Numbered from the stretch's first letter, positions 1 through 58,867 are shown. The stretch: DNA of 64,000 bases from Candidatus Poribacteria bacterium (GCA_022821495.1 JAJEDN010000043.1:2524-66523), one strand, 5' to 3'. Numbers and translations: made by a program. The notes: generated by a model not told the origin, from the sequence alone.

Positions 1-449
1 TGAGGGAACTCACATGGGCTAAGCGATTCTCCGAATGTTCATGGTCACCCGATGGCAAACAGATCGCTTTTACTTCAGATCCCCCTAATGGAGGCAGTGA
101 AATTTTCAGCATTGATGTAAATGGAAAGAACCGCCACCAACTCACATGGTCGGACCAACCTGCAGTCATTTGGGGGCCTGTGTGGTCACCGAGTGGAACA
201 TGGATCGCCTATATCGTGGGTCAGATTCCAGCAGGCGGTGGACCGGTAGATCAAATTATGACTAACGGGGCCATCAGTGTTGTCAATACGATAAACGGTG
301 CAGGTGGGAAACCGATTGAGGCAACAAGAGGATTACCAAAACAATCGCTCCAGTGGGTGCCAAAACAGTTGCTCTCCGTATCACCGAGTGCAGAGAAGCA
401 GATAACGCTCTGGGGCAAACTTAAGCAAGCAGCAGATGCCTCCAAGTAA
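1..449 (+). CDS. PD40/TolB-like beta-propeller repeat protein, C-terminal fragment (5' end outside window)
   Basis: Frame 3 is open from the window edge. It reads ...CSWSPDGKQIAFTSD... and VWSPSGTWIAY (WSPDG-type PD40 motifs). The tail ITLWGKLK resembles the tails of the next four genes. Confidence 0.75.
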   Translation, partial: RELTWAKRFSECSWSPDGKQIAFTSDPPNGGSEIFSIDVNGKNRHQLTWSDQPAVIWGPVWSPSGTWIAYIVGQIPAGGGPVDQIMTNGAISVVNTINGAGGKPIEATRGLPKQSLQWVPKQLLSVSPSAEKQITLWGKLKQAADASK

Positions 450-520
450 CTCTCGTATTGTCAGAGAAATTTGTTCAACTCACACGTATCTCTTGTATTT
501 TAGCCTGTAAGGAGCACACA

Positions 521-1339
521 ATGAAATTTTCTATTTGGATTATTGGAGGTATCCTCCTGTGCCAGGCGTTACCTGTCTCCGCTGGAACGTTCTTAGAAAC
601 ATTTGATAACTTTAACTTAAAGAATTGGGAAGAAGTTAATGAGCGGAATGCTCCTGCTGGCGAATGGCGGGGCATCAATGGTGTGCTGCAGGCAGAAAGC
701 AAAGATGATGCGATCCGCATGCTTGTGATAAAAGATGCAGCGTGGCACGATTACGACGTAGAAATCGATGTCATGCCACTTGCCAAACATGGACGTGGAC
801 ACATTGTGCTCGCTGCACGAGTTAATCAGACGCATGCAATTGTTTTTGCGATCGGAAATATCTTCTGGAATGCCCCTGCACCTATAGCATCAGGTTTCAT
901 CTTGAACTTGAACACCGGCACCAGAGTGGGACTCCCACTGATACTTATGAAAATAGAGGATTTGTTGAACGGACGCCCGCAAGGTGAAATTGTAGATGAG
1001 CTTTTGCGAGTCGGTGTGGCTACAAATATATGTACAACAGTTTCACCGCATCCGTTTCTTGAAAGCGGAAAGTGGACCCAGTTAAAGCTGGGTGTCGTCG
1101 ATAAAATTTTTACGTTCTCGGTTAATGGAGAGGTGGTCTTATACCTCACCTGTCTCTTTGACAACTTCGCTTTCTTGGAGGAAGACCTTAATATTGGTAG
1201 TGTCGGTTTCGGTCTCGCAGGTTATACCGCTCGATTTGACAATCTCAAGATTACCGGCGAAGAAGTCCCGAATCACGGCGGTTTAGTGGTCCAACCCCAA
1301 AGCAAACTGGCAGTGACGTGGGCTCAACTGAAAAAATAG
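521..1339 (+). CDS. secreted concanavalin/DUF1080-like jelly-roll protein
   Basis: ATG 521 follows AAGGAG and opens a signal peptide (MKFSIWIIGGILLCQALPVSAG). FDNF..NWEEV...W..INGVL and a terminal ARFDNLKI resemble the DUF1080/LamG-like pattern. Tail is KLAVTWAQLKK. The longer ORF start at 458 has no RBS. Confidence 0.55.
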   Translation: MKFSIWIIGGILLCQALPVSAGTFLETFDNFNLKNWEEVNERNAPAGEWRGINGVLQAESKDDAIRMLVIKDAAWHDYDVEIDVMPLAKHGRGHIVLAARVNQTHAIVFAIGNIFWNAPAPIASGFILNLNTGTRVGLPLILMKIEDLLNGRPQGEIVDELLRVGVATNICTTVSPHPFLESGKWTQLKLGVVDKIFTFSVNGEVVLYLTCLFDNFAFLEEDLNIGSVGFGLAGYTARFDNLKITGEEVPNHGGLVVQPQSKLAVTWAQLKK

Positions 1340-1383
1340 GTTAAGTAACCACAAAGCGACCAGCCAGAGAAAGAGGGTTTCTG

Positions 1384-2274
1384 ATGTTTATTAACCATAA
1401 GTTCCTATTAAGTGTAGCGTTATTGTTCAGTTTAGTTGTACCTGTTTTTTCTTTCGAGCCTTCCGGAGGTGTTTTATCGTTGGATGGTGAAGATGACTAT
1501 GCAATACTCCCTTTTGCGGAACATGGGCATATTTTCCCTGAAGGCACCCATGCGTTTACTGTTGAAGTATGGTTCTATCCAAAAACTGAACCCAAGGAAA
1601 TAGATAAAGACCTTATTCTCACGCAGCAAGTTTCCATCGGACTAAAGGCAAGAGATCAGTGTCGACTCGCAAAGAATCAACTTTGCAGTTACCGTCATGC
1701 ATATCTTTCAGGAGACAGAGGTCACGGACTTGCAGGGAGTGATAGTCCAATCGAGAAAGATCAATGGAACTATATAGCAATCATTTTCAAGAACAGCACA
1801 CTTTGTCATGCGACCAACAACCAAATTGGTCAAGGGTGGAGACTTCCTATTGTGGACAGGGTATCTTTGCATATCAATAGACCTGAAAGGGTTCAAGGTT
1901 TCGTCGTAGGCGGATATGGTGAGGATAAGTTTGTGGCGCCTAACGGTGGGTTGTTATTCCAAGTGAGCAGCTTTCATGGCGAAATTGATGCAATCCGGTT
2001 TTCAAATACGGCTCGGTATGACTGCGCCGCACAGGGCCACAATCCGTTTGATCCACCGCCCCGTTTTGTGAATGATAAACACACGTTGGCACTCTGGGAT
2101 TTCAATGACAAGGAAGGTGCTACACGCTTTGAAGACACGTCTGGGAATGGAAAGACGCTCATCGGCATGAACGGTGCCACTGTGGTTGGTGGTGAAGGTG
2201 TTGGTAATCTCGAAATTCGTCCCAACAACTCTTTAACGACAACATGGGGCCAAGTCAAGTCGGAATCGTTTTGA
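1384..2274 (+). CDS. secreted LamG (laminin G_3 / concanavalin-like) domain protein
   Basis: Signal peptide present. LSLDGEDDYAILP...FTVEVWFYP...FHGEIDAIRFSNTAR is a typical LamG pattern. Tail is SLTTTWGQVKSESF. Confidence 0.65.
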   Translation: MFINHKFLLSVALLFSLVVPVFSFEPSGGVLSLDGEDDYAILPFAEHGHIFPEGTHAFTVEVWFYPKTEPKEIDKDLILTQQVSIGLKARDQCRLAKNQLCSYRHAYLSGDRGHGLAGSDSPIEKDQWNYIAIIFKNSTLCHATNNQIGQGWRLPIVDRVSLHINRPERVQGFVVGGYGEDKFVAPNGGLLFQVSSFHGEIDAIRFSNTARYDCAAQGHNPFDPPPRFVNDKHTLALWDFNDKEGATRFEDTSGNGKTLIGMNGATVVGGEGVGNLEIRPNNSLTTTWGQVKSESF

Positions 2275-2314
2275 ACTTGAAATTCATGAACCAAACAAAA
2301 AGGAATACGCCAAG

Positions 2315-3334
2315 ATGAAACAAGCATTGCGTTATACAATATTATGGAGTCTATTCATCCTACTGGTTGGAAATGTCGAAGCCGATCAGATAGGGACACT
2401 CTCTTTTGCTTCCTACCCTCGGAGTCCTGACCTCTATCTCATAGATAGCACAGGCAAAAACTTCCAAAAACTCACAACCGATCACATAAATAAGGGGACA
2501 CCCACTTGGTCGCCGGACGGACGCTTTTTTGCCTATCATTCTAATGATAATGGGGGTCCGAACATCTATGTGGTGGATGTCAGAAACAAGACCTCTCGTC
2601 AATTGACAAACCACCGCGATAGGGACTTGTCACCCGCGTGGTCTCCGAATGGCAAATGGATCGCTTTTGAATCTGACCGAACTGGGGATCTACATATCTA
2701 CAGAATCGATGTAGACGGTTCAAATCTGATGCGATTGACAAACCGTGGAGACAACCAAAATCCTGCGTGGTCACCAGACAGTCAATGGATTGCCTATAAT
2801 TCCTATCAAGAAGGAAATCGTGATGCTGGGATTCGTGGAAGGCAATTTCTCTCTGTAATGACTGCCGATGGCAAAAGGTCGAGGCAACTGACAGAAGGCC
2901 TAAATATGTCTGGCTGTACGTGGTCTCCAGATGGAAAACAGATCGCTTTTGCTGCGGGGAATATAGGAAAAGACGGCCTGAATATCATCGTCATTGATGT
3001 CAATGGGCATAACCGCCGTGCCTTAACCGAAGTGGGTCCAAACGCATGGGCAGGGAGTCCATCGTGGTCGCCGGATGGCAAGTGGATCGCCTATTTTTTC
3101 AAGGTTTTGCCAGTATTGGATTTGGATCTTGGACACGGAATCCGAGCCATTGACTTTTGGAGTGGTGACAATGTTATCTGCGTGATAAGTCCTGAAGGTC
3201 AGAACGACGCGCAACAGCTTAAAGCAACAAGGGGATTGTCGTCCAGTCCTGTGTGGGTACCAGAGAGTTTCTTCCGGGTTTCGCCGCAACCAGAGTTGCT
3301 AACAACACAATGGGGAGAAATCAAGAGGGAATAG
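2315..3334 (+). CDS. secreted PD40/TolB-like beta-propeller repeat protein
   Basis: Signal peptide present. Repeated WSPDG/WSPNG motifs (WSPDGRFFAYHS, WSPNGKWIAFESDR, WSPDSQWIAY, WSPDGKQIAF, WSPDGKWIAY). Tail is LLTTQWGEIKRE. Confidence 0.8.
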   Translation: MKQALRYTILWSLFILLVGNVEADQIGTLSFASYPRSPDLYLIDSTGKNFQKLTTDHINKGTPTWSPDGRFFAYHSNDNGGPNIYVVDVRNKTSRQLTNHRDRDLSPAWSPNGKWIAFESDRTGDLHIYRIDVDGSNLMRLTNRGDNQNPAWSPDSQWIAYNSYQEGNRDAGIRGRQFLSVMTADGKRSRQLTEGLNMSGCTWSPDGKQIAFAAGNIGKDGLNIIVIDVNGHNRRALTEVGPNAWAGSPSWSPDGKWIAYFFKVLPVLDLDLGHGIRAIDFWSGDNVICVISPEGQNDAQQLKATRGLSSSPVWVPESFFRVSPQPELLTTQWGEIKRE

Positions 3335-3384
3335 ACTTTTGTATCTTGCTTTTTAAGAAGCAGAGCGCAGTGGAATACTTCAAA

Positions 3385-4419
3385 GTGAAACATGTATTGA
3401 GTTATGCAGCATTATGGGGTCTATTCATTCTACTGTTTGGAAATGTCCAAGCAGATGGGATCGGAACGCTTTCTTTCCTTTCCAAGGATACCGGGGACTT
3501 TGAGATCTATCTCATAGATACCCAAGGCAAAATTCGCCACCATCTTTCAACTGGATTGGCCGATATGAGTGCTCTCACTTGGTCACCTGATGGACGTTTT
3601 ATCACCTATGTATCCAATACGGGAGGAAATGCCGAGATTTATCTGATGAATGTAGGAAACCGGAAAACCCGTCGGTTGACCCATCATCTGAGCACAGATA
3701 CATCACCGGCTTGGTCGCCTGATGGAAAATGGATTGTCTTCACCTCCAACCGTATGGGGAACAACAACATTTACAAGATGGAGGTAACCGGCGCAAAATT
3801 GGAACGATTGACCCATCAAGGCAACAACAAAAGCCCTGTTTGGTCTCCAGACGGTCAATGGATTGCCTTCGTTTCCTCTCGGAACCAAAAAGAGGGTCTC
3901 TATATAATGACTGCCAATGGAAATAGGTTAAAGCGGTTGGCAGATGCATCTTTCAAGTGGGGCGGATGCACTTGGTCACCTAATGGAACACAGATTGCGT
4001 TTTCTGCTTGGGATCCTGAAGTCGAAGGAACAAACATTTTTATCGTTGACTCGGATGGAAAAAACATACGCCATCTAACCCGAGAAGAGCCAAGAGATAT
4101 TCGCTTTGATCCAAAAGTCCCACTCGCTTATCGACCTACGTGGTCCCCTGATGGTCGTTGCCTTGCCTATACTTTAGAATATCTGCGTGTTCCTAAACCT
4201 GAAGGTCTTCAAGAGGATAGGAAAGTCATCTTCCCTTTGGTGCCTCGCGACGGTGTTATCTGCATCACAAACGCCGTAGATGGAGGTAGCGGAAAACCGC
4301 TCCTGATAACAGAAGAGTTGTCATCCGATTTATCTCCGGCATGGGTGCCGGAGGGTTTCTTCCCGGTTTCGCCGCGACCACAGTTATTATCAACACAGTG
4401 GGGACAGCTAAAAAAATAG
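3385..4419 (+). CDS. secreted PD40/TolB-like beta-propeller repeat protein (tandem paralog of 2315..3334)
   Basis: GTG 3385 gives VKHVLSYAALWGLFILLFGNVQADGIGTLSF, colinear with the N-terminus of the upstream paralog. There are six WSPDG-type repeats and the tail LLSTQWGQLKK. The ORF-track start at 3253 would overlap the previous gene. Confidence 0.8.
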   Translation: MKHVLSYAALWGLFILLFGNVQADGIGTLSFLSKDTGDFEIYLIDTQGKIRHHLSTGLADMSALTWSPDGRFITYVSNTGGNAEIYLMNVGNRKTRRLTHHLSTDTSPAWSPDGKWIVFTSNRMGNNNIYKMEVTGAKLERLTHQGNNKSPVWSPDGQWIAFVSSRNQKEGLYIMTANGNRLKRLADASFKWGGCTWSPNGTQIAFSAWDPEVEGTNIFIVDSDGKNIRHLTREEPRDIRFDPKVPLAYRPTWSPDGRCLAYTLEYLRVPKPEGLQEDRKVIFPLVPRDGVICITNAVDGGSGKPLLITEELSSDLSPAWVPEGFFPVSPRPQLLSTQWGQLKK

Positions 4420-4509
4420 TTGTTTTTTACACTTAAAGAACACTTCTAAGCGATCCGATCCTGCATGGAATTTGCCAAAATTCTACGGGTATCGGATTTT
4501 TTTCAAGTT

Positions 4510-4543
4510 ATGCACCTTTTTGCCCTCAAAATTGTATCATTAA
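4510..4543 (+). promoter_or_regulatory. 34-nt conserved motif ATGCACCTTTTTGCCCTCAAAATTGTATCATTAA, candidate (ECF-type?) promoter, copy 1
   Basis: 32/34 identical to 9581..9614. It lies 53 nt upstream of the sigma-fusion start codon. It can be read as GCACC(T-tract)-N17-GTATC or as TGCACC-N18-TATCAT. Confidence 0.4.
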
Positions 4544-4595
4544 CAATTTGAATATAAACACAATCACATCTAAAGATGCGTCATAAGGAATTCTG

Positions 4596-7500
4596 ATGGT
4601 AGAAAACGATGTTCAACTGATTCACAGAATTTTGTCGGGTGATGAACAAGCGTTCAGCACTTTAGTCCGAAAATACCAAAAGAGCGTTCACGCGCTTGCG
4701 TGGCGGAAGATTGGGGATTTTCACATCGCTGAAGAGATTGCCCAAGATGCCTTCCTGCAGGCATACAAAAATCTTGCGACACTGAGGAATCCCAACCAAT
4801 TCGCTGGATGGTTGTATGTGATTGCAAACAATCTTTGCAAGCGATGGCACCAAAAGCAGAAACTTTCTACGCGATCGCTGGAGGGCACACCTATGACAGA
4901 GATAGAGAACTCTTCTTACAAACGTTATGAATTGGAACAACGAGAGGAGGAAGCCGCTGAACGTCGGCATGAAATCGTCAAGGCACTTCTCGAAACGCTG
5001 CCGGAAAGTGAACGCACAGTTGTGACACTCCACTACCTCGGTGAAATGACAGCACAAGAAATTAGCAAATTCTTAGGTGTTTCCGTGAATACGATCAAAA
5101 GCCGGATTCGCCGGGCACGGGAGCGTTTACAAGCGGAAGAGCACCTGATTAGCGAAACGCTGGGGAGCGTTCAGATGCCTACCAATTTCATTGAGCGTAT
5201 TATGCAGCAAGTTGCTGACATCAAACCGACACCGCCTTCGGTTGGAAAACCTGTGTTACCTTGGCTCGCTTTCGGCACCGCTGCGATTCTTATAATGCTG
5301 ATGATTGGTATCGGGTCCCAATACCTGACGCGTTTTCAGAGACCTTACAACTTGAACGCCCAATCGGAAACCACTGTTGAGATCATTGAGGCACCCGTTG
5401 TCCTTGACACACAAGCAGAACCAGATGTGCGAAACCAAGCCGGACGTTCTGACACCACGGGTAGGGACAGCGGTGCTGGTCTGCAAGTTTCGGAACCCGT
5501 TGTCCCGGTTCCCGCCACCCAGATAGAAAAGGAGCCACTCCCAACACCACAGCAGTGGAAACCAGTGAGCGTACCAGCGAGCGGTCCCGTAGGCGGCTTA
5601 CTGGTAAGTTCAAATGGCGATATCTACGCCGCTTCGCGTCTTGGTATCTATAGATTAACGCCAGACACACGCACGTGGACGCTCCTCAGCCCTACAAATT
5701 TGAAGGTCCCCGGCACAATAATACCGATGACAGAGCAAAACGGGACCCTTTATCTTCTCTCTGATGATGAAGTGCTTATTTCAACCAATAGAGGCGAGAC
5801 CTGGGAGCCGGTTGGCACCCGTCCGGAAGGTGTTGCAGTCGCATTGGCCGTAACGGATGAAGCGTTGTACCTCCTGCTGAGAGATAAAGGCGTTTTCCGA
5901 TCTGAAGATATGGGACAGCAGTGGACACCACTCGGGCTTGAAGGAACGGCCAGACAAATCGTTGCTTTGGATAGTATTGAAAATACAGTGTTTGTCGGAA
6001 CACCTGAGGGACTCTATCGTATCAATCCAAGACATAATTTGACCACGGATATATGGGAAAAATTGCCGCTAAATACCACTCAAGCAATCCACTCCTTAGC
6101 GATTGCCGAGAACACCCTCTATGTCGGAACAGGCTTCGACTTAGGCTCCTCTAAAGAGGAGGAAATACGGGCACGGGCAACCGCTGGACAACCCTCGTGG
6201 GAAGTTTTTCGGTCAACCGATTTTGGCGATTCGTGGACCAACATCACACCTACAACCGAGCCAACCTTGAGGTTGTTCCCGGGCATTAAGGTCATTACAG
6301 TTGGAAAAACGCTTTGGGCATTGGGATATACCGGGTTCCAGTGCCGATCCACTGATGGTGGGGAAACATGGACAAACCACGGATACAAAAAGTTAGATCC
6401 GCTTTCAATGATGAATTCGTTTATGCTGGGTGTATTCCCCGCAGTTGGCATGGACGAAAAGATCCTATTCAAAGCCAGTCCTTTTGGACTTATCCGTTCA
6501 ACCGATGCTGGCGAATCGTGGCATCCGTTTATGACAGGCATGGTCGGAACTCGGATATCTAACTTAGTCGCATTCAAAAACGCACTCTACGCCTATACCG
6601 GTACAAATCTCGCGAAATCCACCGACGGTGGGATGTCATGGCAAGATCTACGCTTCACCCCTGATAGATTAACACCAGAATTAGGGGCGGAATTGGCTGT
6701 CGGTTTTCTATTCCGTTCTACGCAACTGGCAATTTCTGACGATAAACTCTACTGCATCGGCACCGCAATTTCCGCAGACATAGAAGGGTCCCAGCCCCAG
6801 CAGCGTATCTTCCATTTTTCTAAAAATCGCGGCGCGCTGGTACTTATGCCAGAAGCCCCTGTCTTTGGTGAAAATCTTTCTATAGAGCCGCCAAAAACTG
6901 CATCACAAGAGAGATTGGAAAAAAATATAGCAGACGATTCACCCAACACCCCTGAGAAAGTCAGTGAATCGACAGACACAACCCGCGAGCCTACAGAATC
7001 TCCCAGTGCGTTTGCAGTCAGTAGTGATACATTCTATGTGGAATATCAGCGGCGGCTCCTGCGGTGGAGACGCGGCGAACCTGAATGGTTCGACACTGGA
7101 CTCGTAGATATTGATGCGTCTGCTAACGATGAGGGCACTGATCGTTTCATTCTTGCGGTTTCAGGTGAAACCGTCTACGTTGGCAAGAGCGATGGACGTC
7201 TGTTTCGATCGCTCAATAATGGGAACACATGGAAAGACCTAACCGCAACGCTGCCCCTTCGATTCAAACATTTCAAGGATATTGTTTTTGCGGGTTCAGC
7301 GCTTTATGTCGCCACAGACGCAGGGGTCTTAACATCGACGGACAATGAAAATTGGCGAACAATAACCGATACAGCCGGTACACACACCCTCATAGACCGA
7401 ATTGCTGTAGATGATATAACGGTTTATGGTGTTGGCGATACCGGGGGCTATGAATTGAATAACCGAGGCAGATGGAAACAAATTTTCTCAACGGTGCCAA

Positions 7501-7598
7501 ATAACGTCGTCTCTATCGCTATCAGTGGCGACAGGCTTTATATTGCCACCGAACGTAGCGGGATGTTTCATGCCTCGCTTGAAAAGGAAAACGATTGA
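4596..7598 (+). CDS. ECF sigma-70 family factor fused through one TM helix to a large Asp-box/BNR beta-propeller ectodomain
   Basis: The N-terminal ~190 aa carries sigma region 2 (FSTLVRKYQKSVHALAWRKIGDFHIAEEIAQDAFLQAY) and region 4 (RTVVTLHYLGEMTAQEISKFLGVSVNTIKSRIRRARERL). The hydrophobic helix LPWLAFGTAAILIMLMIGIGS maps to nt ~5253-5324. At least 8 S-x-D-x-G-x-x-W boxes follow (STNRGETW, SEDMGQQW, STDFGDSW, STDGGETW, STDAGESW, STDGGMSW, SLNNGNTW). Confidence 0.8.
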   Translation: MVENDVQLIHRILSGDEQAFSTLVRKYQKSVHALAWRKIGDFHIAEEIAQDAFLQAYKNLATLRNPNQFAGWLYVIANNLCKRWHQKQKLSTRSLEGTPMTEIENSSYKRYELEQREEEAAERRHEIVKALLETLPESERTVVTLHYLGEMTAQEISKFLGVSVNTIKSRIRRARERLQAEEHLISETLGSVQMPTNFIERIMQQVADIKPTPPSVGKPVLPWLAFGTAAILIMLMIGIGSQYLTRFQRPYNLNAQSETTVEIIEAPVVLDTQAEPDVRNQAGRSDTTGRDSGAGLQVSEPVVPVPATQIEKEPLPTPQQWKPVSVPASGPVGGLLVSSNGDIYAASRLGIYRLTPDTRTWTLLSPTNLKVPGTIIPMTEQNGTLYLLSDDEVLISTNRGETWEPVGTRPEGVAVALAVTDEALYLLLRDKGVFRSEDMGQQWTPLGLEGTARQIVALDSIENTVFVGTPEGLYRINPRHNLTTDIWEKLPLNTTQAIHSLAIAENTLYVGTGFDLGSSKEEEIRARATAGQPSWEVFRSTDFGDSWTNITPTTEPTLRLFPGIKVITVGKTLWALGYTGFQCRSTDGGETWTNHGYKKLDPLSMMNSFMLGVFPAVGMDEKILFKASPFGLIRSTDAGESWHPFMTGMVGTRISNLVAFKNALYAYTGTNLAKSTDGGMSWQDLRFTPDRLTPELGAELAVGFLFRSTQLAISDDKLYCIGTAISADIEGSQPQQRIFHFSKNRGALVLMPEAPVFGENLSIEPPKTASQERLEKNIADDSPNTPEKVSESTDTTREPTESPSAFAVSSDTFYVEYQRRLLRWRRGEPEWFDTGLVDIDASANDEGTDRFILAVSGETVYVGKSDGRLFRSLNNGNTWKDLTATLPLRFKHFKDIVFAGSALYVATDAGVLTSTDNENWRTITDTAGTHTLIDRIAVDDITVYGVGDTGGYELNNRGRWKQIFSTVPNNVVSIAISGDRLYIATERSGMFHASLEKEND

Positions 7599-7656
7599 TG
7601 CTGACAGCGGCACTCATAAAAAGCCTGTAAAACCCGAAAATATAAGGAGAAAAAGC

Positions 7657-8592
7657 ATGGGATACTTTCGATCAGGATATCAGGGTCTGTGCAATCTATT
7701 GACGTTTTGTGTCCTTCTCGGATTTGTAGTCGTTTGCGGCTGTTCGGAATCCGAAAATCGCAACGCGTTAGCCCCACCAGAAACAACAACGCACCCAATC
7801 TCTGAAGAAGTGGTGACCGAGGTGCTGGCGGCTGTAGAAAAAAATAGGCTCGCCGCAGAAATAGAATTCGCACCGCAATTGGAGGCAGTGCCAATGGCAC
7901 CGATGCAAAGACCCCCTACAATTGCTGAGGTTATGGCACAGTTGCGCATGGAATTTCCAGGCAATGTTTTAGACGACGATTTCACAAGGATTCGAGAAAT
8001 CATCGAGTCGGAAACCTATTTAGACTTCTTGAAACGTACCTATCCGCAGGAAAATCAGTTTCAGAATTTCGATGAGTTTTGGGCGTTAGCGTCCGTGGAC
8101 ACAGAAGGGTACATGGAGTTTTTGAGCAAATATTTTAAGTCACCCCTCCCTGAACCCACTGCGGAAGATGTTGATGTACTTCATTATATGGCTTTGTTTG
8201 AGCGCAATCTAAACGTCCGCACGTATCACGACGAGGCAGTCCAAGTGAATGAAGTTATGATAGAGATGATGATGAATGAGCCCGTGCACAGTTGGTTAGA
8301 GCAACGCTTCGTTGATGCTGATGCCGTAAATATTCTGCTTTTAATAAAACTTTTGGTCTATCATAGCATTCTCGTCGATGAACACCAAGAGGAAGATCGG
8401 GAAAAGATTCATGCCCTTTTTGTTGAACATGGTACGCAAAAAGGCTTTTTACGGGTCGCGCTCCAGGAACCGGTATGCCTCGGATATGTCCTCAAAGATT
8501 TTACAGACGTTCAAGTATTCCGAAAATGGGTTGATGGCGAATTCCGTGAAGTCGCCTGGTGGAAGCAACCCCAAGACAACGAAAAAAAGTGA
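7657..8592 (+). CDS. hypothetical lipoprotein (paralog A)
   Basis: ATG 7657 follows AAGGAGA. Lipobox-like LGFVVVCGC. Shares long blocks with 8683..9480 (PPT..E....QL..E.PGN.LD..F...R......T.LDFL.R..P.E.Q.Q..D.FW.LA; ...GY.LKDFTD..V.R.W..GEF). Confidence 0.6.
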   Translation: MGYFRSGYQGLCNLLTFCVLLGFVVVCGCSESENRNALAPPETTTHPISEEVVTEVLAAVEKNRLAAEIEFAPQLEAVPMAPMQRPPTIAEVMAQLRMEFPGNVLDDDFTRIREIIESETYLDFLKRTYPQENQFQNFDEFWALASVDTEGYMEFLSKYFKSPLPEPTAEDVDVLHYMALFERNLNVRTYHDEAVQVNEVMIEMMMNEPVHSWLEQRFVDADAVNILLLIKLLVYHSILVDEHQEEDREKIHALFVEHGTQKGFLRVALQEPVCLGYVLKDFTDVQVFRKWVDGEFREVAWWKQPQDNEKK

Positions 8593-8682: not shown

Positions 8683-9480
8683 ATGCGATGCTTTGAATGT
8701 CAGAATCTTTTCAACCGGTTCGGAGTCTGTCTCTTTTTAGGAATCTCACTATTTTTCGCGTGTCAATCCAGTCCCGACCCAAGTGTTCTTGAACCTGAAA
8801 GGGAGAACATTGACATAGAGGACGGTATTGAGCCAATCGCGCGACCGCCAACGCCCGAGGAGACGTTTGAACAACTCAAACGTGAAAACCCTGGTAATAT
8901 TTTAGATAAGAACTTCAAAACGCTCCGACGGCTTGTCACATCCAAGACCTGTTTAGACTTCCTCAGACGTAACCATCCGTTAGAAGATCAATATCAGACT
9001 TATGATAAATTCTGGGAACTCGCAGCCTCTCATTCATCGCGATACATGCCATTTTTGAAGCAGACGCTTGAGAAACCTGACGAAGAAGATGCCGCGAATA
9101 CACATCTTCTCGCAGTACACTACAGACATGTTTTGATCCGTGGATACCATGGCAAAGATCCTGATACTTTTCAGGACGAATTGAAGAAGTTGATAGACGG
9201 TCCCGGAATGGATATAGCCTTTAAGCATTTTGTACATGCTGAGCGGAATGTTGTGAATGGGCTGGATCTCATTTTTTTTCTTGTGGAACTCACCCTTTAC
9301 GTTGGAAAAACTGAGCGGGCGGATGCTGTGCTCGCTGGTGAACTCTTTGATAAACATGGCGAGCATGACGCGCTTATTTGGCTCGCGCTCAAGGATCCCG
9401 TACTAATCGGATATATTCTCAAGGATTTTACAGATACTGACGTGCTACGGAGATGGATGGCAGGAGAGTTTCATCAATAA
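8683..9480 (+). CDS. hypothetical secreted/lipoprotein (paralog B)
   Basis: Signal sequence ending FFAC. Clear paralogy to 7657..8592. No family recognised. Confidence 0.6.
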   Translation: MRCFECQNLFNRFGVCLFLGISLFFACQSSPDPSVLEPERENIDIEDGIEPIARPPTPEETFEQLKRENPGNILDKNFKTLRRLVTSKTCLDFLRRNHPLEDQYQTYDKFWELAASHSSRYMPFLKQTLEKPDEEDAANTHLLAVHYRHVLIRGYHGKDPDTFQDELKKLIDGPGMDIAFKHFVHAERNVVNGLDLIFFLVELTLYVGKTERADAVLAGELFDKHGEHDALIWLALKDPVLIGYILKDFTDTDVLRRWMAGEFHQ

Positions 9481-9614: not shown

Positions 9615-9674
9615 AGGGTAAATAAAGATTTGGGAAATCCCAAATTAATAGTTTTACATCCAAAGGAGTATAGC

Positions 9675-11303
9675 ATGAAAAAAATAACCCTTTTGATTTT
9701 AACCCTACTCTCCATTTTCGCTGTTAACTTACCCGCTACTTTTGCTCAAACCTACTTTCACACCCGGACACTCGCCGGACATAAAATTTCTGTCCAAGCA
9801 GTCGCATTCAAGGACGACAGCACGCTCATTAGTGTCGGGGGTGATAGCACACTTTACGCTTGGAATCTTGACACCGGTGCCCAACGTTGGCATGTCGAAG
9901 TGGGTCTCTTCTTAATCTCTGATATTGCCATCTCATCGCACGACTCGCGCTTCGTCGTTTATGCTGGAGGACTATTTTTCCGCCCTTATATTGGGATGTC
10001 TTATACAGATGACGGAGACATAAGAGGTTACCTCACAGGACATACAAACAGTGTCAATACGCTGTCCTTTAAGCCAGGGAGTTCCACCCTTGCCAGTGGG
10101 AGCGACGACGACACAATCCGTATCTGGGATTTAACATGGGATGCATGGAAGAACAAGCCAGTCCAGACGCTGCGCGGACATAGGAATAACGTTGAATCAG
10201 TTGCGTGGAGTCCTGATGGAACGCTGCTCGCAAGTGGAAGTAGAGACCGAACCGTCCGCTTGTGGAACCCAAACAACGCTGCCAATACGGCTATACTTCG
10301 CGGACATACGAATACTGTAAACTCAGTTGCGTGGAGTCCTGATGGAACGCTGCTCGCGAGTGCAAGCCGCGATGACACAATTCGGATTTGGGACCCAACG
10401 AACACGGATACCGCGCTGCACGTCTTGGAAGGGCATACCGGTAACGTCAATACGTTGGCATTCCATCCGACTGAGCCACTCCTTGCCAGTGGCAGTAGTG
10501 ACGATACGATCCGCTTGTGGAACCTCACCACCGGGGAACACCAAGCCACCCTTACGGGGCATACAGGTAGCGTTAACACAATAGCCTGGAACTCTGATGG
10601 GATACTTCTCGTAAGTGGCAGTAGTGACGACACAATCCGCTTGTGGGAGCCACTCACAGCGGTTGATATAACAGGGGACGGTAGTGTTACATATCTTGAC
10701 ATTATTGAGGTGGCAGAGAACTACGGAAAAACTGTTGCAGACGGTGCAAACCCACGCGCAGATGTCAACAAAGATGGCATCGTTGACATTGAGGACCTTA
10801 TTGTTATTGCTAAGGCAGTAGATGCCCAAGCACCAATAGATTCCCAAGCGGCACCTATGCTCGCGCAGCTGCCTCGCTCCTCTTCCTTCATCGTAGAAGA
10901 GGTACAGCAATGGATTCAAGACGCACGAGACATCGGCGCGGATGCACAGACAATTGCTGTCTTGGAACAATTCTTGACAGTATTGACACAGCAGACACAA
11001 CCTGCTCCAGAGAAAACAGCACTCTTGGCGAACTATCCCAATCCATTCAATCCGGAGACGTGGATACCCTATCAGTTAGCGAAACCAACGGAAGTCACTA
11101 TCTTCATTCATGCCATAGATGGTGCTTTGGTCCGGACGCTGCCATTAGGCGAAATGCCTGCAGGTGTCTATCAGAGTAGGTCCGATGCTGCCTATTGGGA
11201 TGGTAAGAATGCTCACGGAGAGCAAGTCGCAAGTGGTGTCTATTTCTATACGCTCAAAGCAGGGCAGTTTAATGCGACGCGAAAAATGTTAATACGGAAG
11301 TGA
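9675..11303 (+). CDS. secreted WD40-repeat protein with dockerin-like EF-hand pair and NYPNPFNPETW-type (T9SS/FlgD-Ig-like) C-terminal domain
   Basis: ATG 9675 follows AAAGGAG, then a signal peptide. About 7 WD40 units (GHTNSVNTLSF...LASGSDDDTIRIWDL, etc.). DITGDGSVTYLD and DVNKDGIVDIEDL are dockerin-like loops. The C-terminus reads LLANYPNPFNPETWIPYQL...GVYFYTLKAG. Confidence 0.85.
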   Translation: MKKITLLILTLLSIFAVNLPATFAQTYFHTRTLAGHKISVQAVAFKDDSTLISVGGDSTLYAWNLDTGAQRWHVEVGLFLISDIAISSHDSRFVVYAGGLFFRPYIGMSYTDDGDIRGYLTGHTNSVNTLSFKPGSSTLASGSDDDTIRIWDLTWDAWKNKPVQTLRGHRNNVESVAWSPDGTLLASGSRDRTVRLWNPNNAANTAILRGHTNTVNSVAWSPDGTLLASASRDDTIRIWDPTNTDTALHVLEGHTGNVNTLAFHPTEPLLASGSSDDTIRLWNLTTGEHQATLTGHTGSVNTIAWNSDGILLVSGSSDDTIRLWEPLTAVDITGDGSVTYLDIIEVAENYGKTVADGANPRADVNKDGIVDIEDLIVIAKAVDAQAPIDSQAAPMLAQLPRSSSFIVEEVQQWIQDARDIGADAQTIAVLEQFLTVLTQQTQPAPEKTALLANYPNPFNPETWIPYQLAKPTEVTIFIHAIDGALVRTLPLGEMPAGVYQSRSDAAYWDGKNAHGEQVASGVYFYTLKAGQFNATRKMLIRK

Positions 11304-11358
11304 AAACTTATTTTTTTCCTTCGCTATGAACCAAATTTCTGTTTTTGGAGGAATCAAA

Positions 11359-13272
11359 GTGAAATATGTTCTTGTTTTTGTAAGCATGGCCATCGCGATG
11401 CTCTGTCAACTCGGCTGCTCTCTTGATGAAGCGCAAACACAATCTGAGAATCCTATAACCAACGATGCAACATCCGTTCTTAACGCCCCACGCTTTGTCG
11501 GAAATGTTGTCTTGGAAAATATGTATGCGGATGAAACTGGGAAACTGGCAAACAAAACACCACTGGAAATCATTACCGTGCTTGAAGGCACTGGCAAAGT
11601 CAGTCTTCAGGCTCGCTTTCGGTCAGTTAAAGACGGACCTTATGGATCACCCGTCTACGAATGTGAACTGATTGATGAATCAGCAGAGATTGCCCGGGGA
11701 ATGTCAGGCAGTCCAGTAGGCCCCCCGGGCCGTGTAATGGGTGCTCTCGCTTTCGGATACTGGTATAGTAAACCGCCGCACCGGTTCTTGGTCACACCCA
11801 TTGATTATATGGAGACAGCCATACACCATCCAACGTTTGGTGAATTTTTGAATGGAGAGGCGGCACCCGCTGCCCCCGCACTGGCGATGAATGCTACGTA
11901 CGCGCCAGTTAAAACACCTGTGATAATGACAGGGATCCAGCCCCACAGAATTCAAGAACTTTCTTCACATCTCTCTGACTCAAAATTCGATTTTGTTGAA
12001 TTGGTCGGTGATATCGGCGGCGCGCCTGCAGCACCGCCTGCAGATGCCACAACAAAACTCTTTGCGGGGGATATGATTGGTGCTGCCGTCGCTACCGGAG
12101 ATGTTACGAGCCTCATTGGCTATGGAACAGTGACACAGGTTTATGATGATAAATTTGTAGCCTTCGGTCACCCATTCTTTGCAGATGGGCAGTCTGCACT
12201 ACCGGTATATAGAGCTGTAACCCATGGAATCAGGTCCAACTTGACAGCATCAACTAAATCTGTCTCAGCGTACGGAAATCCGATCGGGACAATAACTAAA
12301 GACCTACATCCTGGAATTGTAGGGGAGCTCGGTCCGGGCCCCGCAATGATTCCAGTAAAGGTCTCTTACCGTCCCGTTAATAATAACACACCTATAGAGA
12401 AACATCATGTTGTCGCTTACGGCCAAGAGTGGGCACTTTCGTACGTTGCCGCAGTAACAATGGACGCAATTCGGATGGAGCGGAACGTCGCAACAGTTGA
12501 AGGAACTGTAACGCTTCACTTTCAAGAAACCGAGACTGTGTATACAGAAAAGTTTCGGACAGCCTCTTCAAACCCGTTTTTCGATGTGTTCATAAAGACG
12601 GGGTCAATTATTGACGCGTTCACTAATACACTTACAAACAACGCGGGCAAAGCAACCTTGAAAGCTGTTTCGATTTCTATCGTGGACAAACCGCAAATTG
12701 CCACAGCCGAAATTGACGAAATTATTGTGCCTGCTGAAGTGATGCCCGGAGAAAGTCTCACGGTTTCGGTGGTGCTACTTCCACACTGGAGCACTGCTGG
12801 TGCTGAGAGGATAATTCAAAGGGAAGTTATACTTGACATCCCTGATGGCTTCCCGATGGGTGAAGCAAATCTCACAGTTTCCGCCGCCGATGAATCGACT
12901 GACGACACAGAATTCACACAACTCTTCGGCAATATTTTCGATGAACTCTTAGGCGAGGAAGAAGAAGAAGATGAAAAACCGTTGCCAAGAAACCTCGACG
13001 AACTCATCCGTCAGAAGGAAGAGGATCAAATGGATGCAGGGTTAATTACAATAACGCTGACACCATCAGCTTTTGGTGGTGGATTCGCATTACCGGAAGA
13101 TTTACCGCTGCCAGAAGGCTTCCCACTCCCAGATGATTCGGAGGAACAGCCTATAGAAATTGAACTCATTATTGAAGGCTTTATCGTAACCGGGTCTAAA
13201 GAGGCACAAATTGTGATTAAAGTGGGAAACATGGAAGCCGGTGTACTGCGAATAGAGGGCGCACAACAATAA
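11359..13272 (+). CDS. SpoIVB/peptidase-S55-like domain lipoprotein
   Basis: GTG 11359 lies 7 nt after GGAGG (ATG 11326 is an alternative). Lipobox is LCQLGC. ARGMSGSPVGPPGRVMGALAFGY...TPIDYME matches the GMSGSP(I/V)...GA serine motif of S55 peptidases, and FVAFGHPFF is a possible His motif. There is an acidic linker EEEEEDE. No His precedes the Ser motif, so the call is tentative. Confidence 0.5.
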   Translation: MKYVLVFVSMAIAMLCQLGCSLDEAQTQSENPITNDATSVLNAPRFVGNVVLENMYADETGKLANKTPLEIITVLEGTGKVSLQARFRSVKDGPYGSPVYECELIDESAEIARGMSGSPVGPPGRVMGALAFGYWYSKPPHRFLVTPIDYMETAIHHPTFGEFLNGEAAPAAPALAMNATYAPVKTPVIMTGIQPHRIQELSSHLSDSKFDFVELVGDIGGAPAAPPADATTKLFAGDMIGAAVATGDVTSLIGYGTVTQVYDDKFVAFGHPFFADGQSALPVYRAVTHGIRSNLTASTKSVSAYGNPIGTITKDLHPGIVGELGPGPAMIPVKVSYRPVNNNTPIEKHHVVAYGQEWALSYVAAVTMDAIRMERNVATVEGTVTLHFQETETVYTEKFRTASSNPFFDVFIKTGSIIDAFTNTLTNNAGKATLKAVSISIVDKPQIATAEIDEIIVPAEVMPGESLTVSVVLLPHWSTAGAERIIQREVILDIPDGFPMGEANLTVSAADESTDDTEFTQLFGNIFDELLGEEEEEDEKPLPRNLDELIRQKEEDQMDAGLITITLTPSAFGGGFALPEDLPLPEGFPLPDDSEEQPIEIELIIEGFIVTGSKEAQIVIKVGNMEAGVLRIEGAQQ

Positions 13273-16531: not shown

Positions 16532-16612
16532 TAATACATGATATACACCGCATGATAGATATTGGGGCTGAACCCCTCAACCCTATTTTTCTATAGAAAA
16601 GGAGAAGCACGG

Positions 16613-17359
16613 ATGAGCATCTATCAAAAGGGGCTCAAAATCCCTTACGCCCCCACAGAAGAAAAACGCCTTTACCCTGACACCGACGGAGAACCGATGG
16701 CAGCGAGTGACCTTCATAGACAACAACTGATGTGGACATTACAAACCCTTGAAACACATTTCACTGCACACCCAGAGGTCTATATCTCCGGCGATATTCT
16801 GATGTATTATGAGAAGGGTGAACCGCGTCGGGTCGTCTCCCCCGATGTTCTCGTGGTTTTTGGTATAGGTCGAGGCCCCCGGAGGACGTATAAGGTCTGG
16901 GAAGAGGGCAAAACGCCGGATTTTGTGATGGAGTTTTCGAGCGAAAGCACCTACGAAAATGACCTAACTCACAAGTTGGCTCTCTACGCTGAGTTGGAGA
17001 TTGAAAATTACGTCTTGTACGATGCGGAGAGGCTATATCTGCCGTCACCATTGATGGGGTTTCAGTTAGTGAATGGGGAATACGTAGAGATTACGTTAGA
17101 TGTAGATGGAGGGTTATATTCTTCGGTGCTGGGGTTAGCGTTTCATATCCGTGATGAAGGTTTAGGGATTTATGACCCCGTTGTGAGCGAGTGGCTTCAA
17201 ACACCGGCAGAGGCAGCAGAGACTCGCGCAGCACAGGAAGCCAGCGCACGACAGAAGGCAGAGACTCGCGCAGCACAGGAAGCCAGCGCACGACAGAAGG
17301 CGGAAGCCGAAGTCATCGAACTCCAAGAACAACTTGCTCAGTTACAAGCACGCCACTGA
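16613..17359 (+). CDS. Uma2 family (DUF820, restriction-endonuclease-like) nuclease
   Basis: ATG 16613 follows AAAGGAG. YPDTDGEPMA...PDVLVVFG...PDFVMEFSSEST...D...K...Y...E..NYVLYD matches the Uma2 PD-(D/E)xK pattern. The C-terminus is a coiled-coil tail. Confidence 0.8.
   Translation: MSIYQKGLKIPYAPTEEKRLYPDTDGEPMAASDLHRQQLMWTLQTLETHFTAHPEVYISGDILMYYEKGEPRRVVSPDVLVVFGIGRGPRRTYKVWEEGKTPDFVMEFSSESTYENDLTHKLALYAELEIENYVLYDAERLYLPSPLMGFQLVNGEYVEITLDVDGGLYSSVLGLAFHIRDEGLGIYDPVVSEWLQTPAEAAETRAAQEASARQKAETRAAQEASARQKAEAEVIELQEQLAQLQARH
17219..17302 (+). repeat. 2 x 42-bp in-frame tandem repeat (ETRAAQEASARQKA x2)
   Basis: 17219..17260 and 17261..17302 differ only at the last base. Confidence 0.9.
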
Positions 17360-19161: not shown

Positions 19162-20061
19162 ATGTTAAAAAAAAGTAGGTCGGTTTTCGTTCTTTTATTG
19201 ATCTTCGGTTTCAGTGCGACATTGATGGGAAACGAGTGGGCAAATTACTATTTCCCGGATGCAGTCGGTAGTTACTGGACTTATGAAGACCAAGACGGTG
19301 AAGAATTAACGCGCTACGCCATAGCACCCGAAGAAATTGATGGCGAAACCTATCGTGCTTTTAGTTACGACCCAGTCTTGGAGGATTGGGCAGACTATCA
19401 GTATTATGTTCATCCGTATTTCTACCAAGTCAGCGACGACTGGGTGGCGTTCTTTATCGGTGAAGATATAGAAAATGCGACACGGGCAATCACAGAGCAG
19501 CAGTGGAACGAAGTTGTTACACTAATGAAGCAACAAATGAATAACCAGATGCCACCAGGCGTAACCATTGACCTTGATGTGACATACGAACTCGATGTCG
19601 AAGCCCAAGACTATTTCTACTTTCTACCAACGCCTGCTACCTTCAATGAGGAATGGGAGGCACTGCGTGTTAATACGAAAGTAGACCTGCAGATCAGTAT
19701 CACAAGCAATTTGGAAAGTTTTCCGCCAACAAGCCAAGCTATCACAATGTTCCTGACCCTCGTTGAGACTGGAAACGTCACTGGCACGGAGACCCTCGAA
19801 ACGGCTGCTGGCACGTTTGAAGATTGTCTAAAGATTGAGTATACAGTAGATGCCACAATAGAAACGAACCCAGAAATACCTGAAGCCAAAAGTATGTTCG
19901 CGGATGCATACAGTGGATCAGTGACAACCCTCTGGCTCGCTCCTAATGTCGGTATCGTTCAAATGCTACAGGAATCCGAAAATACCGATACCGTAAAAAC
20001 CCTTGAATTAACGAATTATGAAATCAAGTCTACCGAGTCAGGAAGCACCGAAAGTCCGTAA
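19162..20061 (+). CDS. hypothetical secreted protein (paralog 1)
   Basis: Signal peptide present. [31 protein letters not shown] is shared with 20130..21056. A possible TTGCCG-N17-TATACT promoter sits at 19081..19109. Confidence 0.55.
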   Translation: MLKKSRSVFVLLLIFGFSATLMGNEWANYYFPDAVGSYWTYEDQDGEELTRYAIAPEEIDGETYRAFSYDPVLEDWADYQYYVHPYFYQVSDDWVAFFIGEDIENATRAITEQQWNEVVTLMKQQMNNQMPPGVTIDLDVTYELDVEAQDYFYFLPTPATFNEEWEALRVNTKVDLQISITSNLESFPPTSQAITMFLTLVETGNVTGTETLETAAGTFEDCLKIEYTVDATIETNPEIPEAKSMFADAYSGSVTTLWLAPNVGIVQMLQESENTDTVKTLELTNYEIKSTESGSTESP

Positions 20062-57043: not shown

Positions 57044-57282
57044 AGGTCGCAAGACGCGTGTTGAAACCGAAACGTAAAAATAAAGAGGATATTTTCATGT
57101 ACTCCGCATGAGCCGCCTCAAAGGGTATATTGCTCCCTTTCTCAAACTACACAACTTGGTCTTGTGATAAAAATTCAAACGGGACAAGTAGACCCGCAAA
57201 CTGCAAGCCTTCTAATATTATACCCAGAGTAGGACATATCTATAGCAGCGTCCTTTCCTTTATTCCTTAAGGTATCCATTGC

Positions 57283-58836: not shown

Positions 58837-58867
58837 CGCTGAATAATAAAATTAGAGGTATCCATTC

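Follow-up and report, generated by a model that had tools for sequence, protein, structure and literature searches.

A conserved C-terminal tail of signal-peptide proteins across the phylum Poribacteria as a possible protein-sorting or docking tag

We analyzed a 64,000-nucleotide stretch of DNA (hereafter the window) from Candidatus Poribacteria bacterium (GCA_022821495.1 JAJEDN010000043.1:2524-66523), in which six ORFs on the + strand end in the same short motif. Five of them are consecutive genes at the left edge of the window. The first (3-449) is a PD40 beta-propeller gene whose 5' end is cut by the window edge; its tail with stop lies at 375-449 (...LSVSPSAEKQITLWGKLKQAADASK) and matches the PD40-subfamily variant VSPSAEKQxTLWGxLKQ seen in homologs. 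It is followed by a signal-peptide protein with a 3-keto-disaccharide hydrolase/DUF1080 jelly roll (521-1339; PF06439, 3keto-disac_hyd, 35.6 bits; tail with stop at 1283-1339, ...LVVQPQSKLAVTWAQLKK) and by a signal-peptide LamG-like protein (1384-2274; tail with stop at 2209-2274, ...LEIRPNNSLTTTWGQVKSESF), for which the Laminin_G_3 score of 26.5 bits is just under the 27.6 cut-off and of which ortholog fragments P0081 and P0085 keep the same tail. The next two genes both code for signal-peptide PD40 beta-propeller proteins, one at 2315-3334 (tail with stop at 3275-3334, ...FFRVSPQPELLTTQWGEIKRE) and the other at 3385-4419, probably starting at GTG 3385 (tail with stop at 4363-4419, ...FFPVSPRPQLLSTQWGQLKK). 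The sixth, distant gene (41378-42136) encodes a signal-peptide LamG protein (Laminin_G_3, 95.4 bits) with the tail and stop at 42074-42136 (...LAVDPGDKLTTTWAWVKRTR). Thus, five of the six proteins have visible signal peptides, whereas the sixth has lost its N-terminus at the window edge.

The motif W[GA]x[ILVM]K lies 7, 1, 4, 2, 1 and 3 residues before the stop in these six ORFs, respectively. Among 141 ORFs of at least 100 aa in the window, 6 have it in the last 15 residues, while residue shuffles give a mean of 0.03 and a maximum of 1 in 2000. The only other occurrence in the window is 680 residues from a C-terminus. Synonymous codons differ freely among the six copies (Leu CTC/CTG/TTA/CTA/TTG; Thr ACG/ACA/ACC; Gly GGC/GGA; Lys AAG/AAA), and the conservation is therefore at the protein level and does not represent a DNA repeat. 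The observation made in the preliminary description is thus confirmed, although it has to be corrected in two respects. The carriers were said to represent three unrelated folds, but DUF1080 and LamG are both ConA-like jelly rolls, so that the window itself shows only two folds (the wider survey, described below, does show many). In addition, the conserved unit is longer than the nine-residue motif originally given, comprising about 17 residues plus a short polar or basic end.

To find out how widespread the tail is, we scanned 185,579 species genomes with a DNA pattern for KLTTTWGxhK. The pattern hit at least 118 loci, of which 110 are labelled Poribacteria, 6 are unclassified or probably mis-binned and 2 are chance hits with no ORF end. 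In these loci, 185 ORFs carry the tail, and with the tail masked they fall into 25 BLAST clusters. Pfam searches with representatives identified Laminin_G_3, PD40, 3keto-disac_hyd, F5/8 type C (discoidin), CBM9, Kelch, BNR/Sortilin, He_PIG + LTD giants of up to about 2,200 aa, an M12-like metalloprotease + ankyrin and SnoaL-like domains, whereas about 10 clusters have no Pfam match. An exhaustive HMM search found 865 representatives of 50%-identity clusters at E<=1e-3, and 147 of the 148 newly retrieved top-listed hits end in GKLTTTWGxLK at the extreme C-terminus. However, since the profile was contaminated by an upstream domain of the giant proteins, the figure of 865 is not a clean count of tails. 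It should also be noted that the DNA pattern biases the sample toward the consensus.

The consensus of the tail is [LF]-[AP]-V-[ED]-P-x-[GD]-K-L-T-T-T-W-G-x-[LI]-K. In the 118-locus sample the final K is always followed by 1-10 residues, typically 1-5 polar or basic ones and most commonly 2-4, the last of which is most often R. The position of the tail is strict: the core T-x-W-[GA]-x-[ILVM]-K occurs 165 times in 254,084 residues of gene-like ORFs from the 118 loci, and every occurrence is within 10 residues of the stop, with none being internal. Counting from the tryptophan, W is 100%, K(+4) 98%, G/A 98% and K(-5) 90% conserved. V at position -10 is 90% conserved even though it was not part of the search pattern. 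The tail is far better conserved than the domains it follows. LamG homologs of only 27-36% identity all keep V-D-P-x-x-K-L-T-T-T-W-G-x-[IL]-K, and 115 of the 120 best PD40 homologs keep their own variant. Together with the synonymous codon variation, this shows strong purifying selection. The possibility that the tail occurs only in a few recent paralogs is ruled out, as it is phylum-wide and sits on at least 25 unrelated sequence clusters.

AlphaFold models do not support the tail being an integral strand of each fold. In the model of the LamG protein at 41378-42136, the core has pLDDT above 90, whereas the tail (residues 234-252) has pLDDT 39-51; in the model of the PD40 protein at 2315-3334, the propeller is confident, while residues 321-339 have pLDDT 34-38 and are coil. 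In neither case is the tail packed against the core. Of course, low pLDDT indicates the absence of a confident prediction and is not proof of disorder. The tail also follows an all-alpha ankyrin protein, and it is usually preceded by a Pro-containing linker. Its hydrophobic moment fits a strand (0.53 at 160 degrees versus 0.30±0.15 when shuffled), whereas at 100 degrees, the helical angle, it equals the value for shuffled sequences (0.297 versus 0.297), and the mean hydrophobicity is about 0.

Carriers of the tail appear to be predominantly exported. By a crude signal-peptide test, 148 of 160 carriers pass compared to 138 of 441 neighbours (Fisher p = 1.6e-44), although this test is a hydropathy heuristic that also accepts membrane proteins. 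The proposal of the preliminary description that we are dealing with a compact sorting, anchoring or recognition tag is supported, even though the sorting or anchoring function itself is inferred and remains unshown. Analysis of gene neighbourhoods revealed no partner, receptor or processing enzyme. The recurrent neighbours (FG-GAP/ASPIC, TPR, WD40-dockerin-CTD, Gfo/Idh/MocA and PhyH) all belong to families that look abundant in these genomes, with PhyH expansion documented by Kamke et al. 2014 (PMC3909097), and there were no control loci against which enrichment could be assessed.

We next asked whether the tail might correspond to an already described C-terminal signal. Neither the whole proteins nor the consensus 20-mer produced a Pfam or NCBIfam match to a described C-terminal signal, and we found no paper on the tail. 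One of the closest known systems is the T9SS type A C-terminal sorting domain (TIGR04183/PF18962, Por_Secre_tail), and the same window encodes one. The WD40 + dockerin-like protein at 9630-11303 (+) ends in such a domain (NYPNPFNPETW...MLIRK; 10980-11300), which scores 29.9 bits against TIGR04183 (cut-off 23) and also matches FlgD_ig and Por_Secre_tail. The distinction drawn in the preliminary description between the tail and this NYPNPFNPETW domain is therefore correct, and the genome also uses a second, known kind of C-terminal signal. Like the tail, the T9SS domain is found at the extreme C-terminus of Sec-exported, fold-diverse proteins, has no transmembrane helix and ends in hydrophobic and basic residues. 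However, it is a folded Ig-like sandwich of about 70-100 aa, whereas the tail is about 20 aa, is predicted to be unstructured and shows no HMM similarity to it, as none of the six carriers nor the consensus 20-mers gave a hit at E<=0.1-1. Interestingly, Kamke et al. 2014 (PMC3909097) report T9SS-type C-terminal domains but no T9SS structural genes in poribacterial single-cell genomes, so that an unidentified route recognizing C-terminal signals is already implied in this phylum.

The PEP-CTERM/exosortase (TIGR02595), LPXTG/sortase (TIGR01167) and GlyGly-CTERM/rhombosortase tags resemble the tail in being short, lineage-restricted C-terminal signatures on many unrelated signal-peptide proteins and in being followed by basic residues. 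In those tags, however, the signature is followed by a hydrophobic transmembrane helix and an Arg/Lys cluster, and they are processed by a membrane enzyme. The tail has no P-E-P motif; unlike L-P-x-T-G, its K-L-T-T-T-W-G has no Pro, and T and G are not adjacent; and with only 1-10 residues after the motif there is no helix-length hydrophobic segment. None of these families gave an NCBIfam hit. An outer-membrane-protein beta-signal, which has an aromatic residue (Phe/Trp) at the end of a terminal barrel strand, does not fit either, because the last residue is R, Q, K, N or D in most tails and F or Y in only 21 of 183, and the carriers are soluble domains rather than barrels. In peptidoglycan attachment of the Lpp type the reactive Lys is the C-terminal residue, whereas only 21 of 183 tails end in K. 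Dockerins are duplicated Ca-binding folds of about 70 aa; the tail is too short, and no dockerin was detected by Pfam on carriers. Donor-strand or beta-augmentation tags (the type V pilin C-terminal strand, the chaperone-usher donor strand and SpyTag-like split strands) are similar in that a short strand-forming terminal peptide is disordered alone and becomes ordered in a partner's sheet. Yet those strands belong to one pilin fold and polymerize like subunits, whereas the tail is found on many unrelated folds and no acceptor is known.

Based on these results, we tentatively favor the view that the tail is a self-contained C-terminal recognition tag of about 20 residues that is found in Poribacteria and almost nowhere else. 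According to this scenario, carriers are made with an N-terminal Sec signal peptide and, as inferred from sequence, exported to the periplasm, with the predicted unstructured tail remaining free on the folded protein. A cognate envelope component might then bind the tail close to the free C-terminus, most likely as an extended strand or hairpin (beta-augmentation), and direct the protein to the cell surface, the outer membrane or the medium. Both the binding and the sorting steps are inferred. Since the tag has no transmembrane segment and is too short to fold, it would work differently from the exosortase, sortase and rhombosortase tags and from the roughly 80-aa T9SS domain. At the same time, every well-characterized short C-terminal sorting tag on Sec substrates has a membrane-spanning helix, which the tail lacks, so that there is no direct precedent for the proposed mechanism. 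It is possible, although we consider it less likely than not, that the tail defines a new class of bacterial sorting signal, namely a helix-less linear C-terminal peptide on Sec substrates, read by a still unknown envelope pathway confined to Poribacteria. That pathway might even be the same unidentified route that handles the T9SS-type C-terminal domains.

Other explanations seem less likely but deserve consideration. The tail might not direct transport at all but instead serve as a kind of mini-dockerin, non-covalently plugging small lectin-like or propeller modules onto a scaffold on the cell surface or outside the cell and giving rise to glycan-binding assemblies resembling a cellulosome. 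Indeed, most carriers are small single-domain binding modules (LamG, CBM9, discoidin, DUF1080, propellers), often in tandem arrays. Potential scaffolds are also found nearby: WD40-dockerin-CTD genes lie near carriers in this window and in 4 other loci, FG-GAP/ASPIC genes abut carriers of 5 different clusters and TPR genes abut LamG carriers. WD40 and TPR domains appear capable of binding short C-terminal peptides (WRPW by TLE and PTS1 by Pex5, respectively), albeit in eukaryotic, cytosolic systems. Nevertheless, given the apparent abundance of these families, adjacency may be due to chance, and the presence of the tail on giant multi-domain proteins and a protease fits a general sorting signal better than module docking. 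Somewhat less likely still is a covalent anchoring or processing site, at which a periplasmic or outer-membrane transpeptidase or peptidase would cleave near W-G or use one of the two nearly invariant lysines to link the protein to peptidoglycan, LPS or another protein, an outcome analogous to that of sortase, PorU or the L,D-transpeptidase reaction on Lpp. The near-invariance of W, G/A and both lysines is typical of enzyme recognition sites, the motif always lies close to the C-terminus and the short, variable segment after it could be a leaving group. On the other hand, no candidate enzyme is linked in the neighbourhoods, there is no membrane tether to hold the substrate near a membrane enzyme and the conserved Lys is not the terminal residue, unlike in Lpp.

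We consider the remaining possibilities to be very unlikely. A short amphipathic helix tethering exported proteins to a membrane surface, as the PBP5 C-terminal helix does, would be consistent with the i, i+4, i+7 spacing of L(-4), W(0) and L(+3), flanked by lysines, and with the low-confidence helix that AlphaFold drew for residues 237-251 of the LamG tail. However, the helical hydrophobic moment and mean hydrophobicity argue against it, as do T-T-T and G, which are poor helix formers, and the predicted coil of the PD40 tail; moreover, lipid-binding helices rarely show 90-100% residue identity across families. A degradation or maturation signal recognized by a periplasmic C-terminal processing protease (Prc/CtpA-like or the S55-like protease at 11326-13272) would account for the obligatory position near the C-terminus, and a secreted protein with a weak Peptidase_S55 motif does lie 7 kb downstream of the five-gene array. 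Yet that hit is below threshold (19.8 bits against 25) and the family was not among the recurrent neighbours at other loci, tail-specific proteases prefer non-polar C-termini whereas these tails end polar or basic, and it is hard to see why hundreds of families would keep a degron. Least likely of all, the tail might not be a tag but the last structural strand of each domain or a nascent-peptide element acting in the ribosome tunnel at termination. In the giant proteins it does directly follow the last strand of a conserved domain, and the motif, being 2-10 codons from the stop, would sit in the exit tunnel at termination. These readings are already largely refuted by the two AlphaFold models, by the presence of the tail after many different folds, by the preceding Pro-containing linker and by the association with signal peptides, which a ribosomal effect would not explain.

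Lineage-specific C-terminal tags such as LPXTG, PEP-CTERM and the T9SS domain have each led to the discovery of a dedicated sorting machine and are routinely used to predict surface proteomes. The tail described here appears to mark a large part of the secreted, glycan-binding and propeller proteome of Poribacteria, a dominant and uncultivated phylum of sponge symbionts, and its design, with neither a transmembrane helix nor a folded domain, is not seen in these named tags. Should it turn out to be only a docking peptide, it would still point to a new modular surface architecture. In either case, it provides a simple classifier for the exported or surface proteome of these bacteria, a diagnostic tryptic peptide family (LTTTWGx[IL]K) for metaproteomics and, in the form of the 20-mer, a bait for an unknown envelope component. 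It is also a sharp taxonomic marker, which flagged at least one probably mis-binned contig.

Six + strand ORFs in the window, at 3-449 (its 5' end cut by the window edge), 521-1339, 1384-2274, 2315-3334, 3385-4419 (likely starting at GTG) and 41378-42136, indeed end exactly as the preliminary description indicated. In these ORFs W-[GA]-x-[ILV]-K sits 7, 1, 4, 2, 1 and 3 residues before the stop, respectively. Of the 141 ORFs of at least 100 aa found in six frames, 6 carry the motif in their last 15 residues, whereas residue shuffling gives a mean of 0.03 and never more than 1 in 2000 trials. The only other match in the window is located 680 residues from a C-terminus. A DNA-level repeat can be rejected, since the six copies use different synonymous codons for Leu, Thr, Gly and Lys; what is conserved is therefore the peptide and not a DNA element. 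Pfam confirms PD40 three times, 3keto-disac_hyd (DUF1080) and Laminin_G_3, the latter once clearly and once just under the cut-off. Five of the six proteins show a classical signal peptide, while the sixth lacks its N-terminus. The preliminary description assigned the carriers to three unrelated folds. However, DUF1080 and LamG are both ConA-like jelly rolls, so that the window itself shows two folds.

To find out how widely the tail is distributed, we first examined homologs of its carriers. Homologs of the LamG protein are labelled Candidatus Poribacteria where a name exists, and so are the named homologs of the PD40 protein, at up to 86% identity. LamG homologs sharing only 27-36% identity with the query still end in V-D-P-x-x-K-L-T-T-T-W-G-x-[IL]-K. 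In their alignment W245 is one of only 11 invariant columns, and V235, K240, L241, T244 and K249 are at least 90% conserved. Of the 120 best PD40 homologs, 115 keep a family-specific variant, F-x-V-S-P-[SQ]-x-[EQ]-[KL]-[QL]-x-T-[LQ]-W-G-x-L-K, and the other five are truncated, frameshifted, or have F in place of L. We then back-translated K-L-T-T-T-W-G-x-h-K into a DNA pattern and scanned one genome for each of 185,579 species. Of the 118 loci recovered, 110 are titled Poribacteria. Another 6 are annotated as 'uncultured bacterium' or come from a sponge MAG labelled Pseudomonadota, and all six carry genuine tail-ending ORFs. The remaining 2 (Synechococcus, Clostridia) have no ORF end at the match and are chance hits; based on the information content of the pattern, we estimate about 9 chance matches for the whole collection. 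In the contig labelled Pseudomonadota (JAPPIL010000222.1; 21.5 kb, low coverage) two adjacent genes end in the canonical KLTTTWGxIK tail. This is probably a mis-binned poribacterial contig, and thus the tag could serve as a binning check.

In the 118 loci of up to 8 kb each, 185 ORFs end in the tail, many of them in tandem arrays. With the last 30 residues masked, these ORFs fall into 25 BLAST clusters. Pfam searches with representatives identified Laminin_G_3 (the largest cluster, 92 members), 3keto-disac_hyd, F5/8 type C, CBM9, Kelch, BNR/Sortilin, a 1,682-aa He_PIG + LTD protein, an M12-like metalloprotease with ankyrin repeats and a SnoaL-like protein, with PD40 assigned from the window genes and their homologs, whereas about ten clusters have no Pfam match. 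Independence of fold therefore holds in a much stronger form than could be seen in the preliminary description. It is also worth noting that the tag varies by carrier family within one genome. On a contig with Ala/Gly/Arg-rich proteins (CAYYPK010000012.1, 'uncultured bacterium'), five PD40-like proteins end in a divergent tail, …[MV]WGWLKQL/ATGR…, while Kelch proteins on the same contig keep the canonical KLTTTWGAMK[RQ]R.

The scale of the phenomenon was more difficult to assess. A second tail-only profile search in the 5.8-billion-protein database returned only 17 short gene fragments, because candidate selection favoured short proteins, and was useful only as input for the next profile. An exhaustive HMM search of 1.84 billion cluster representatives then found 865 proteins at E<=1e-3. 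Of the 148 newly retrieved top-listed hits, 147 end in …R-L-K-G-x-V-x-A-A-G-K-L-T-T-T-W-G-x-L-K at the very C-terminus of proteins up to 2,242 aa. However, the profile had picked up about 45 upstream columns from giant-protein fragments, so that the top hits are dominated by one C-terminal domain plus tail, and the figure of 865 is an indication of scale rather than a clean tail count. Giant He_PIG/LTD proteins (locus L059 of the species scan, 2593-7638, - strand, and proteins P0207-P0354 of our collection) share a conserved C-terminal domain of about 110 aa (…W.TESE.NNAGFN..RS…VVYYYQI[EQ]DVSLDG…RL[KR]G) with no Pfam or NCBIfam match. The tail follows this domain immediately, and at least 147 clusters at 50% identity have this arrangement.

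Next, we aligned 183 non-identical tails on the Trp, numbered here as position 0 (W 100%). Upstream of it we found L 48% at -12, A 53% or P 16% at -11, V 90% at -10, E 46% or D 20% at -9, P 57% or A 24% at -8, G 34% or D 17% at -6, K 90% at -5, L 89% at -4, T 78% or A 14% at -3, T 90% at -2 and T 90% at -1. Downstream are G 91% or A 7% at +1, L 57%, I 28% or V 9% at +3, and K 98% at +4. K(+4) is followed by 1-10 residues (mode 3), rich in R, S, Q, T and N, with R being the most frequent last residue. V(-10) and P(-8) were not part of the search pattern and so provide independent evidence that the unit is about 17 residues long. The core T-x-W-[GA]-x-[ILVM]-K occurs 165 times in 254,084 residues of gene-like ORFs, always within 10 residues of the stop and never internally. 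The segment has no hydrophobic stretch, its mean Eisenberg hydrophobicity being about 0. Its helical hydrophobic moment equals that of shuffled versions, whereas the moment at 160 degrees is higher than shuffled (0.53 vs 0.30±0.15; 6% of shuffles reach it), which mildly favours a strand over an amphipathic helix.

To address whether the tail might be a part of the preceding fold, we ran AlphaFold2 with family alignments. For the LamG protein the core has pLDDT of 87-98 up to about residue 230, but the tail (residues 234-252) has pLDDT of 39-51 and is not packed on the domain. Similarly, the PD40 protein is predicted as a confident propeller, with residues 321-339 having pLDDT of 34-38 and modelled as coil. 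Together with the presence of the tail after an all-alpha ankyrin region, these models argue against an integral strand. We also asked whether the carriers are secreted, using a crude test that requires a Lys or Arg in the first 12 residues and an 11-residue window with mean Kyte-Doolittle hydropathy of at least 2.0 near the N-terminus. The test is passed by 148 of 160 complete carriers compared to 138 of 441 neighbouring ORFs (odds ratio 27, p = 1.6e-44). Since the test also accepts membrane proteins, the contrast is, if anything, understated.

Neither the whole carriers nor the consensus 20-mers hit any Pfam or NCBIfam model at E<=0.1-1, and full-text literature searches found no description of the tail. 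C-terminal sorting tags as such are a known kind of feature. However, the tail lacks the transmembrane helix of PEP-CTERM, LPXTG and GlyGly-CTERM tags, the terminal aromatic residue of the outer-membrane-protein beta-signal and the terminal Lys of Lpp. A known C-terminal signal is nonetheless present in the same window. The protein encoded at 9630-11303 (+) consists of a WD40 propeller, a dockerin-like segment and a T9SS type A C-terminal domain (NYPNPFNPETW…) that passes TIGR04183 (29.9 bits, cut-off 23). The tail and the first strand of the poribacterial T9SS domain (…NPETWIPYQL) share only T-W, and in a different register, a similarity that we judged too weak to count. Interestingly, Kamke et al. 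2014 (PMC3909097) note that Poribacteria encode TIGR04183 domains but no Por/T9SS structural genes, and that the secretion route 'remains to be revealed'.

We also searched for a partner of the tail by clustering 613 non-carrier ORFs from the 118 loci. This recovered only families that look abundant in these genomes (Gfo/Idh/MocA, PhyH, TPR, FG-GAP/ASPIC, WD40-CTD, and the PBP1C + alpha-2-macroglobulin pair), and no unique candidate emerged, although there were no control loci to test enrichment. FG-GAP/ASPIC genes do directly abut carriers of five different clusters, and WD40-dockerin-CTD genes occur near carriers in this window and four other loci. In addition, what we read from the sequences as a PBP1C-like transglycosylase and a large alpha-2-macroglobulin-like gene form a conserved pair in loci L003, L028, L034, L085, L094, L098 and L115 of the scan, directly next to an array of LamG, cluster-5 (one of the 25 BLAST clusters) and DUF1080 tail carriers. 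The FG-GAP/ASPIC and WD40-dockerin-CTD associations should be regarded as leads and not as evidence.

Taken together, the obligatory position near the C-terminus, independence of fold, near-invariant residues, association with signal-peptide proteins, almost complete restriction to one phylum and predicted disorder are the signature of a recognition tag read by a protein partner after Sec export. We tentatively favour a sorting or anchoring signal bound as an extended strand or hairpin near the free C-terminus, although this function is inferred and the partner was not found. Two close alternatives appear less likely: a non-covalent docking tag for surface scaffolds and, slightly less likely still, a covalent processing or attachment site using the conserved W-G or Lys. 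A membrane-interface helix, a protease signal, a structural strand and a ribosomal effect are minor possibilities, all four of which are disfavoured by our data; in particular, the helical hydrophobic moment, being no better than shuffled, speaks against an amphipathic-helix membrane anchor. There is a real chance that the tag marks a categorically new pathway. The tag is strikingly conserved, abundant and apparently unannotated in a major uncultivated phylum.

Directly downstream of the five-gene tail array lies a 1000-aa protein (4596-7598, +) that fuses an ECF sigma factor (regions 2 and 4) to a transmembrane segment and a large BNR/Sortilin-type propeller region; it may be a one-component sigma/anti-sigma sensor for the cluster. 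Two adjacent paralogs (7657-8592 and 8683-9480, +) have no Pfam match and hydrophobic N-termini, and share a C-terminal motif, …[VI]LKDFTD..V[FL]R[KR]W[VM][DA]GEF. A 648-aa signal-peptide protein (11326-13272, +) with a GMSGSP motif and a sub-threshold Peptidase_S55 (SpoIVB) hit (19.8 bits against 25) is a possible secreted serine protease. An ORF at 16562-17359 (+) contains in its C-terminal part a direct tandem duplication, ETRAAQEASARQKAE / TRAAQEASARQKAE. Two large adjacent ORFs of 522 and 1036 aa (57271-58836 and 58856-61963, +) have nearly identical C-termini, GRAKE[TA]LGQ..AAQ.DF.KAKELDPDV.Q, suggesting a recent duplication of what are probably repeat-type proteins. Finally, tandem paralogs with signal peptides (19162-20061 and 20130-21056, +) share a different C-terminal ending, …TLELT[NS]YEIK followed by an acidic/Ser tail, which has a loosely similar shape to the tag (L…T…aromatic…I-K) but was seen only in these two genes.
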